From: Escherichia coli
GTDB lineage: Bacteria > Pseudomonadota > Gammaproteobacteria > Enterobacterales > Enterobacteriaceae
Reading direction: 5' to 3' (one strand)
Assembly (NCBI RefSeq): GCF_003334385.1
Contig: NZ_QOWN01000150.1
Length of the DNA: 695 nucleotides
A model generated the notes under the pieces. That model was not told the DNA's origin. It ran no database searches and worked only from the letters and a program-made list of their open reading frames with translations. The first letter of the stretch is position 1. Each line of letters begins with the position of its first letter. The position numbers and the translations under genes were made by a program. This document shows, one piece after another, positions 1 to 695 of this stretch.

Positions 1-30
1 CGACAGGCCGTATCTGATTTTTGCGTTCAT
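1..30 (-). CDS. 5' end (first 10 codons) of a putative prophage endolysin, GH24 lysozyme, RrrQ/YdfQ-like; gene continues beyond the left window edge
   Basis: Seen in sequence: minus-strand ATG at complement of 28..30 followed by AAC GCA AAA ATC AGA TAC GGC CTG TCG = M-N-A-K-I-R-Y-G-L-S, open to the window edge. Established knowledge, recalled from memory and not searched: the E. coli K-12 Qin prophage lysozyme RrrQ begins MNAKIRYGLSAAVLA.... Caveats: only 30 bp visible, and no Shine-Dalgarno motif within 15 nt upstream on the minus strand. Confidence 0.35.
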   Translation of the reverse strand, partial: MNAKIRYGLS

Positions 31-51
31 GGATATTTATCAGGATTTATC
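31..51 (+). repeat. Tandem direct repeat GGAT(AT)TTATC (31..41 and 43..51) in the divergent intergenic region; a third GGATAT copy lies at 66..71; possible protein-binding or operator-like site
   Basis: Seen in sequence: GGATATTTATC at 31..41 and GGATTTATC at 43..51, spaced about one helical turn apart; GGATAT recurs at 66..71. They lie immediately upstream of the putative lysozyme ATG (read on the minus strand as GATAAAT repeats) and upstream of the plus-strand small ORF. No confident match to a known operator consensus. Confidence 0.25.
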
Positions 52-91
52 GGTTCCGAATCCCTGGATATGTTAAGTCTTCAGCCCGCCA

Positions 92-331
92 GTGGTGGGC
101 ACTGGCGTAAACTCAACAATGCGAGATGGCTGCCTCGCAAAGATAATCAAAGCAATGGATGCACTAAGTAAAAATAACGCTGTGTCAGATTACCTGATCG
201 CCGAAATGGAACATCTAATTAAAGAAATACCAAAGACAGTTGCTCGTGATGATAAAAGATTCCTCAAGGCTGCTGAAGATGCTCTTTCAACAGTGAAGCG
301 CAGCTTAGATGCGCCGCGCGATCAAGAATAG
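92..331 (+). CDS. Hypothetical small protein (79 aa from GTG at 92, or 70 aa from ATG at 119); possible moron-like ORF; could be a chance antisense ORF
   Basis: Seen in sequence: open frame bounded by in-frame TAA at 74..76 upstream and TAG at 329..331. Candidate starts are GTG 92 and ATG 119, neither preceded by a recognisable Shine-Dalgarno motif. The predicted peptide is helical and charged (rich in A/K/L/D/E), with no signal peptide or transmembrane segment. Codons include ATA x2, CTA x2, AGA, CGA. The last 68 bp (264..331) overlap the 3' end of the minus-strand CDS, so one of the two readings in that segment may be non-coding. Hand-counted GC of 121..240 is about 40%, below the window average. 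Confidence 0.3.
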   Translation: MVGTGVNSTMRDGCLAKIIKAMDALSKNNAVSDYLIAEMEHLIKEIPKTVARDDKRFLKAAEDALSTVKRSLDAPRDQE

Positions 332-695
332 TTTCTTTCATTTCATCTGCTGCAAGCACCTCATTTTTTGTTGGGATGCTTTTTTTCAATTCAGCGATAT
401 AGCACTCCAGTTTTTCAATGCGTGATTCAATATCATCGTTTTCTGACCGCAATGCCGTCGGTGGCGTCTTCAGAGAACCAGTAATTATTCCCGGTAGTTT
501 TCCTCTGTAGGTTATCAACACATCCTGCGCCTCTAAAATTATGGGGCGCTTTTCCGGCGACTGCTCATCCCCTTCACATAAAGCGGCAGCAATATCCATG
601 AAAAACTGCTTCGCCTGTTTTTTCGCCTCAGCTTCGTAAAACTCCAGCGTGGCACCTTCAGTACGGTCAAGACTAATCGCCACATATGGCAACAA
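264..695 (-). CDS. Hypothetical protein, 5'-partial (N-terminus lies beyond the right window edge); predicted compact N-terminal region followed by a charged helical, possibly coiled-coil, C-terminus; function unknown
   Basis: Seen in sequence: uninterrupted minus-strand reading frame of 143 sense codons from the window edge (695) to TGA (complement of 264..266). The first codon TTG at 693..695 is probably a window-edge artefact, not the true start. The only internal ATG (complement of 597..599) has no Shine-Dalgarno-like purine run upstream. Amino-acid composition is protein-like, with a heptad-like charged stretch DDIESRIEKLECYIAELKK. Codon usage resembles horizontally acquired enterobacterial genes (ATA x3, CTA x2, AGA). 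No transmembrane-like stretch, so it is not a holin. No family recognised from memory. Confidence 0.7.
   Translation of the reverse strand: MLPYVAISLDRTEGATLEFYEAEAKKQAKQFFMDIAAALCEGDEQSPEKRPIILEAQDVLITYRGKLPGIITGSLKTPPTALRSENDDIESRIEKLECYIAELKKSIPTKNEVLAADEMKETILDRAAHLSCASLLKEHLQQP

Follow-up and report, generated by a model that had tools for sequence, protein, structure and literature searches.

YdfR (b1555, P76160), encoded by the cryptic prophage Qin of Escherichia coli K-12, is the founding member of the protein family described in Pfam as DUF1327 (PF07041). Its gene is located among lysis genes, in the order essQ (holin), 4 nucleotides (nt), ydfR and rrrQ (lysozyme), and specifies a protein of 103 amino acids (aa). 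Here, a gene of the same family and at the same position is described in a 695-nt stretch of E. coli DNA (NCBI RefSeq assembly GCF_003334385.1, contig NZ_QOWN01000150.1), the whole of which is called the window below. Two convergent open reading frames (ORFs) are listed in the window, one on the minus strand (264..695) and one on the plus strand (92..331). Judging from its sequence, the former, referred to as the DUF1327 gene, almost certainly encodes a YdfR/DUF1327-family protein. In contrast to this protein, K-12 YdfR has no heptad helices, its tail after residue 74 is unrelated, and its gene has no convergent neighbour, the ydfR stop codon overlapping the start of rrrQ.

The only experimental lead on function concerns K-12 YdfR. 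A two-hybrid screen returned its N-terminal 72 residues three times, and the full-length protein gave a two-hybrid signal with residues 1-597 of RNase E (Rne 1-597). Moreover, Strep-YdfR co-purifies Rne 1-598-FLAG together with DNase-resistant nucleic acid (PMC13232886, RNA Biol 2026). The best overall explanation of the window protein, which we put forward tentatively, is that it is a late cytoplasmic accessory protein whose core would bind RNase E and/or RNA and whose heptad segment would serve in self-association or docking.

Two further kinds of relatives resemble the window protein in architecture. The 211-aa 'DUF1327 containing protein' of phage PhiR5_1 (XSB41308.1) is 95% identical to it over all 176 residues of the complete window protein and is encoded at the same position between the lysis genes S and R; however, it has 35 further residues (EEKRRDEQFAAFYDYCIEVTRRNFVKAFEESKSLQ, module D below) and faces another convergent gene, phrog_2572 (L002 5142-5402). 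In the PhiR5_1 record, the latter is labelled 'DUF1823 containing protein', which reflects a marginal Pfam match (E 0.04), and phrog_2572 describes it better. The long YdfR-family proteins of E. coli prophages (296-330 aa) and their distant relatives P0213 and P0222 share the N-domain, linker and heptad helix with the window protein, and the 330-aa form also shares module C, but their extra C-terminal domain (...GRCMGYLQVAAEIEA...PPFK..W.PGL.YLK.RI) is missing from it.

Family membership and locus

The window protein matches Pfam DUF1327 over aa 1-112 (model positions 1-92/93; E 6.9e-40, 135.6 bits), and PHROG 2091, to which no function is assigned there, covers aa 1-172 (profile positions 1-182/183; E 2.5e-79). 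An identical 176-aa sequence had already been deposited as "YdfR family protein" (34 contigs); both the family and the exact sequence of the product were catalogued before this analysis. The original prediction had considered the ORF confidently coding and had not been able to place it in a family. The second statement does not stand, whereas the first is borne out by the Pfam match, by homologues that are detectable down to approx. 25% identity and by the ratio of nonsynonymous to synonymous polymorphism (pN/pS). In particular, when 12 alleles were compared in pairs, which are not independent of one another, the crude pooled pN/pS amounted to 0.47 in the N-domain and 0.50 in the tail; this indicates moderate constraint in both core and tail.

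The members of the family are 72-330 aa long. A hidden Markov model search of 1.84 billion cluster representatives yielded 105 clusters, all of them DUF1327-type or its tail modules, and a Foldseek search against AFDB50 found, apart from the weak matches described below, only DUF1327 proteins of Enterobacterales. A full-length match to a routine phage structural or replication protein, which would have spoken against an accessory function, was found in none of the profile, PDB and structure searches, and the PDB and structure searches gave no solved-structure match for the window protein. The only match in the PDB sequence search was of a coiled-coil type, to P22 gp26 (E 0.0056); the 296-aa form had none. 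In NCBIfam and PADLOC, only chance-level matches were obtained, whether with the DUF1327 protein and the long forms or with the plus-strand ORF and the partner proteins described below; the best PADLOC match of the window protein was Cmr5 (E 0.026, chance level), and the best E value among long forms and partners was 0.018. Rfam gave a sub-threshold chance match only, and a peptide-pattern scan of genome_contigs for relatives found none. The 90%-identity cluster that contains the window protein (P0225, P0227) also lists sequences named 'terminase small subunit'; this name was rejected because those sequences are unrelated to the window protein, and their presence is a clustering artefact without biological meaning.

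The sequence of the window recurs with 100% identity on the chromosome of E. coli JNEC-KY176 (window 1-695 corresponds to 6001-6695 of the locus L001), and its surroundings are the late region of an E. coli lambdoid, Stx (Shiga toxin)-phage-like prophage. Within the window, the DUF1327 ORF comprises codons 34-176 (143 codons) and a TGA stop at 264-266 on the minus strand, and it is open at the right edge. Full-length recovery of the ORF, proposed in the original prediction, was achieved from the identical chromosome, on which the complete ORF encodes 176 aa (L001 6264..6794, equivalent to window 264..794). On the strand of this gene, the annotated genes of L001 (some small hypothetical ORFs are omitted) begin with a DNA methyltransferase, three tRNA genes, an SASA-family esterase, DUF1378 and DUF826, and continue with a class II holin (71 aa), the DUF1327 gene, lysozyme R, Rz, an HNH endonuclease and terminase. 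According to the L001 annotation, the endolysin gene R reaches into the window with its first 10 codons (MNAKIRYGLS...), at 1..30 on the minus strand. The DUF1327 gene indeed lies upstream of a lysis gene, as had been stated, or more exactly between S and R.

The DUF1327 gene is tightly packed behind the holin gene: its ATG, preceded by GGAG/AAGG, is located 4 nt past the holin stop codon. This spacing, together with the co-orientation with S, suggests that the gene is translationally coupled to S. A consensus scan, which is weak evidence, found no promoter-like or terminator-like site on the minus strand within the window. The flanking lysis genes resemble, by eye, what we take to be a pinholin/signal-anchor-release (SAR) endolysin pair of the phage 21 kind. 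The 71-aa holin (L001 6799-7014) belongs to PF04971 and is an S21-type class II protein, and the R protein (L001 5497-6030) has a weakly hydrophobic, Gly/Ala-rich N-terminus (GLSAAILALITAGASA).

Domain architecture and the truncated tail

A first AlphaFold2 (AF2) model of the window protein, based on a shallow alignment, reached a predicted local distance difference test (pLDDT) score of 57, and a deeper alignment of 45 sequences improved the core only. In AF2 model 2, the core (aa 1-76) is predicted to adopt a beta-beta-beta-alpha topology, with strands at aa 5-14, 18-27 and 37-43 and a helix at aa 50-76 (pLDDT 74-95), which agrees with the globular N-terminal part noted earlier. The core carries the family motif D-R-x-E-G-x-x-L-E-F-Y-E-A, in which Y53 is invariant and E54 is at least 90% conserved (alignments A1 and A3); the part of the core that falls within the window (aa 34-76; 567..695, minus strand), delimited by AF2 and the family alignment, contains it as DRTEGATLEFYEAEA. 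The core is followed by a subfamily-specific segment (aa 77-117; 444..566, minus strand), which is modelled with low confidence or is disordered (AF2 pLDDT <50) and into which the Pfam match extends as far as aa 112. The Pro/Thr-rich linker that the original prediction had pointed out is present at aa 109-120 (KTPPTALRSEND; KTPPTALRSE) and overlaps this low-confidence segment.

Two C-terminal helices are predicted, at aa 118-138 and 143-172 (pLDDT ~65-81, and about 73-81 for the former). A short heptad, coiled-coil-like segment at aa 115-139 (378..452, minus strand) is delimited by its a/d pattern, by AF2 and by relatives: isoleucine occupies a and leucine d positions, and all 6 a/d positions are hydrophobic over a stretch of 21 residues, and 7 of 8 over 28. 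The statistics are modest, as 2000 shuffles each of the C-terminal 64 residues and of the whole protein produced an equally good heptad 17 and 141 times, respectively. With an Ile(a)/Leu(d) heptad predicted in the first helix, the earlier observation of a coiled-coil-like C-terminus is tentatively supported. The motif xRIxxLExxIxELxK is kept in the distant relatives P0157, P0212, P0213 and P0218. No transmembrane segment or signal sequence was found in the window protein (highest 19-residue hydropathy mean 1.29), and its composition is acidic and of a soluble type; by these predicted properties, it is a soluble and not a membrane protein.

Five modules were defined from alignment A1 and from IMG/VR loci: module A, the DUF1327 N-domain; module B, the heptad helix; module C, which ends with ...TPTKNEVLAADEMKETILDRAAHLSCASLLKEHLQQP; module D, which begins with EKKRRDEQFAAFYDYC...; and module E, a C-terminal domain of approx. 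110-150 aa. All five are present in the 330-aa form found in L028. The window protein is composed of modules A, B and C and ends directly after ...QQP, with D and E missing, whereas its relatives read on past this point with EKKRRDEQFAAFYDY... (…QQPEKKRRDEQ…) into D and E. In the window, module C (aa 140-176; 267..377, minus strand), identified from the alignments and the 330-aa form, comprises the second helix and ends with ...KEHLQQP. DNA alignment with phage PhiR5_1 and strain G1/2 revealed a mosaic junction at window 264-270, at the stop codon, to the left of which lies a convergent cassette that varies among phages. In PhiR5_1, the counterpart of this junction is found at L002 5350-5402. 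These alignments identify the window protein as a shortened form of a modular protein of approx. 330 aa, with its tail cut exactly at the cassette junction. The automated annotation (PGAP) flags it as a C-terminally incomplete pseudogene because relatives continue into D and E, although the ORF itself is intact.

A tail that ends at a junction might also be chance read-through of the neighbouring cassette. This was ruled out, since modules B and C occur in long forms that lack an antisense gene and in the diverged P0212, and are therefore genuine coding modules. In one locus (L104 48-1443), the modules are distributed over two adjacent genes in swapped order: the holin gene is followed by a gene for a 209-aa protein with the coil and the C-terminal domain (B-D-E) but without the core, then by a gene for a 75-aa core and by a convergent 95-aa ORF. 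This two-gene layout links the core functionally to the coil and C-terminal domain module.

The truncation also bears on whether the gene is a decaying, functionless remnant that was shortened by cassette replacement and is retained only by its position in the operon. The PGAP note, the exact coincidence of the protein end with the mosaic junction, the loss of modules D and E, the pN/pS of approx. 0.5, the decay of the adjoining cassette by a 100-bp deletion and a weakened hairpin (see below) and the small number of complete E. coli genomes with this tail type (127 of 5426) are all consistent with such decay. However, the reading frame is intact and its ribosome-binding site is kept, the 176-aa architecture is retained in alleles that are 76-98% identical, and the tail is as constrained as the N-domain. 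Moreover, the K-12 protein, with its 103 aa, and the cores of 72-76 aa that stand alone show that a core by itself is a viable product. Decay is therefore regarded as a rather improbable account of the gene.

Distribution among phages and the convergent neighbour

A DUF1327 homologue was found in 101 phage records, all of them of Escherichia lambdoid or Stx phages. The S21-type holin is present in 434 phage records, and 101 of those (approx. 23%) contain the DUF1327 gene; in VT2-Sakai, which lacks it, S is followed after 4 nt by R. DNA closely similar to that of the N-domain occurs in 2878 of these 5426 genomes, with as many as 8 sites in a single genome, while the window-type tail is confined to the 127 genomes mentioned above. 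The Escherichia DUF1327 genes met here have a PF04971 holin before them and a PF00959 lysozyme after them, and the order holin, 4 nt, DUF1327 gene, (convergent ORF), lysozyme and Rz is shared by L001, L004-L011 and the essQ-ydfR-rrrQ region of K-12 Qin.

Relatives also occur outside lysis cassettes, a point on which the original prediction had asked for a check. In prophages of other Enterobacterales, stand-alone cores of 72-76 aa are encoded between the lambda-like tail genes M and L (L093 4001-4231 and L097 511-741), and a further one is encoded directly upstream of L in L098 (3001-3219), where M was not called; these tail-gene cores are far from any lysis gene. In L100, a 266-aa relative is encoded between Q and a holin of a different family. 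Just upstream of this relative, in the same Q-to-holin interval, a HicA/HicB toxin-antitoxin pair is located on the opposite strand (L100 2127-2781), probably as another cargo insertion at the same site. Because distant relatives reside among tail genes or in the interval from Q to the holin, the DUF1327 gene is not lysis-specific: it is an optional gene, mobile among sites of the late operon and without a fixed link to lysis, and quite probably accessory and non-essential for lysis.

The position of the gene in Escherichia, always between holin and endolysin and 4 nt past the S stop codon, which equals the S-R spacing in phages without the gene, would be expected of a lysis-timing or endolysin-regulating factor of the S21-type holin/R cassette, acting, for example, via the cytoplasmic tail of the holin or via R export. 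In line with such a role, ydfR was flagged for envelope integrity in a genetic screen (Paradis-Bleau 2014, reference 79 in PMC13232886). However, the gene is missing from about three quarters of the phage records with the same holin, and distant homologues are found within tail modules or ahead of a holin of another family. Furthermore, the protein has no transmembrane segment, signal sequence, lipobox or muralytic domain, and no match to lysis-protein families (holin/antiholin, endolysin, spanin) was found in the Pfam, PHROG and NCBIfam searches. A direct function in lysis control appears highly improbable on this evidence.

Lambda-type morons such as bor and lom are optional cargo of the late operon with a patchy distribution. 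The idea that the DUF1327 gene is accessory cargo of this sort, raised in the original prediction, is partly supported. It agrees with the patchy occurrence (101 versus 434 records), the gene-free VT2-Sakai cassette and the presence of relatives elsewhere; on the other hand, no promoter-like site of its own was seen in the window, and the gene appears to be translationally coupled to S. In contrast to morons, it is co-oriented with S, tightly coupled to it and devoid of a promoter-like site. The DUF1327 gene is not a classic moron: its distribution is patchy, but by the consensus scan of the window it lacks a promoter and terminator of its own. The moron pattern does fit the convergent plus-strand gene, which has a terminator-like hairpin of its own.

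In strain G1/2, this convergent gene is intact (L003 3156-3431) and encodes a 91-aa protein (WP_021565043.1, phrog_18136); over its last 68 nt, it runs antisense to the 3' end of the DUF1327 gene. The plus-strand ORF of the window (92..331) is a remnant of it, recognized by phrog_18136 and by comparison with strain G1/2. DNA alignment with that strain shows that exactly 100 bp between two 9-bp direct repeats (CAAAGATAA) are deleted in the window, where the sole remaining copy of the repeat forms the scar (138..146, plus strand); the deletion removes the ribosome-binding site, the ATG and approx. 27 codons. A terminator-like hairpin with a U-run (U7), identified by folding, is located at 354..381 on the plus strand, antisense within the DUF1327 coding sequence, and has a free energy of -16.7 kcal/mol (z -3.5) in L003. 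In the window, A376, which is G in relatives, weakens the hairpin to -10 kcal/mol (z -1.0), and the same G-to-A change replaces Thr140 of the DUF1327 protein with Ile. A terminator scan of the window found no terminator, including at the weakened plus-strand hairpin.

At least seven types of small convergent ORFs (70-111 aa) are located directly behind DUF1327-type genes at three late-operon sites (seen in L002, L008, L028, L092, L093, L096, L097, L100, L104 and L105). None of these types has a match in Pfam, and BLASTP, phmmer, MAFFT and Pfam gave no support for homology among the partner proteins. Whether the DUF1327 gene co-occurs with the small plus-strand ORF, a further question of the original prediction, receives a divided answer: in 9 IMG/VR loci, the phrog_18136 gene accompanies the 176-aa form, but the 296-aa and 114-aa forms, K-12 ydfR and the core in L098 have no convergent partner. 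The long forms and a phrog_1853-like partner (approx. 105 aa) stay paired while diverging to 27-30% and 38-49% identity, respectively. In L105, the phrog_1853-like partner is present without a DUF1327 core; therefore, it tracks module E and not the core.

These recurring neighbours could indicate that the late DUF1327 gene and a lysogen-expressed convergent gene constitute a two-gene accessory module, such as a neutraliser/effector pair, a superinfection-exclusion system or an anti-defence switch, which would be disabled in the window because the partner gene is deleted at its 5' end. The abutting or overlapping 3' ends in at least seven cassette types at three genomic sites argue for such an arrangement, as do the two persistent pairings and the placement of the terminator-like hairpin of the plus-strand gene within the DUF1327 gene. 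However, the partner types have no detectable mutual homology, the phrog_1853-like partner goes with the C-terminal domain and not with the core, no partner accompanies several of the forms, and no component has a PADLOC match; the pattern could also mark a recombination hot spot for the insertion of opposite-strand morons. A two-gene module is accordingly considered unlikely, and the convergent neighbours may represent either a functional pair or an insertion hot spot.

A tentative role for the core

The reading of the window protein as a late cytoplasmic accessory factor draws on its resemblance to K-12 YdfR. The two proteins are 42% identical over aa 1-74, the region reported to be involved in binding, which includes the most conserved family motif. 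As this core is common to the whole family, binding of RNase E and/or RNA by the core, combined with self-association or docking through the heptad, is taken as the likeliest function. The core also exhibits a weak but recurrent resemblance, in three structure libraries, to nucleic-acid-binding beta-beta-beta-alpha motifs (the double-stranded RNA-binding domain and Rad52/Red-beta/RecT/ERF), and all structural matches beyond the family are weak (RecT, Foldseek E 0.012; ERF, E 0.07).

In the proposed mechanism, the DUF1327 protein would be made late in infection alongside the lysis proteins and would act in the cytoplasm in an accessory capacity, not as an effector of lysis. The core would be a binding module that, as K-12 YdfR is reported to do, contacts RNase E at its catalytic N-terminal half and/or RNA. 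The heptad helix would give rise to a dimer or oligomer; alternatively, it would serve to dock another partner or the C-terminal module that is missing here. RNA decay would thereby be modulated in the late phase of infection. RapZ, RraA/RraB, phiKZ Dip and T7 gp0.7 are small phage or host proteins that bind RNase E and alter the decay of RNA. The likeness of these proteins to the proposed role of the YdfR core would be one of functional analogy, not homology; in particular, no sequence or fold similarity of the window protein to RraA, RraB, RapZ or phiKZ Dip was found.

Several points weigh against this proposal. The experimental data come from K-12 YdfR, while the window protein and the other phage-borne copies are known from sequence, and 42% identity gives no guarantee of the same partner. 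YdfR binding was observed by two-hybrid and co-purification only, a contaminant as the source of the RNA could not be excluded according to the authors, and YdfR overproduction in K-12 altered few transcripts (PMC13232886). In addition, PGAP calls the present copy a pseudogene ("incomplete; missing C-terminus"), the heptad run spans only approx. 3.5 repeats, and purifying selection is only moderate (pN/pS ~0.5). Binding of RNase E and/or RNA is consequently retained as a possible but somewhat doubtful working mechanism. A more elaborate version, in which the core would be a phage-borne RNase E/RNA adaptor, disseminated among Enterobacterales prophages on a mobile cassette that often includes the convergent gene, and forming a lysogeny/lysis switch with that gene, is far less probable. 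In such a switch, the lysogen-expressed partner would control or counteract the late-made protein, and the tail variants would reflect cassette shuffling.

With regard to the window itself, the result is mostly a clarification: an ORF that had seemed unplaceable is a member of a catalogued family, in a truncated mosaic form. The gene family is very common in E. coli prophages and is present in many Shiga-toxin phages. If the RNase E lead proved true for the phage copies, the family would represent a widespread phage factor that acts on host RNA decay in the late phase of infection.

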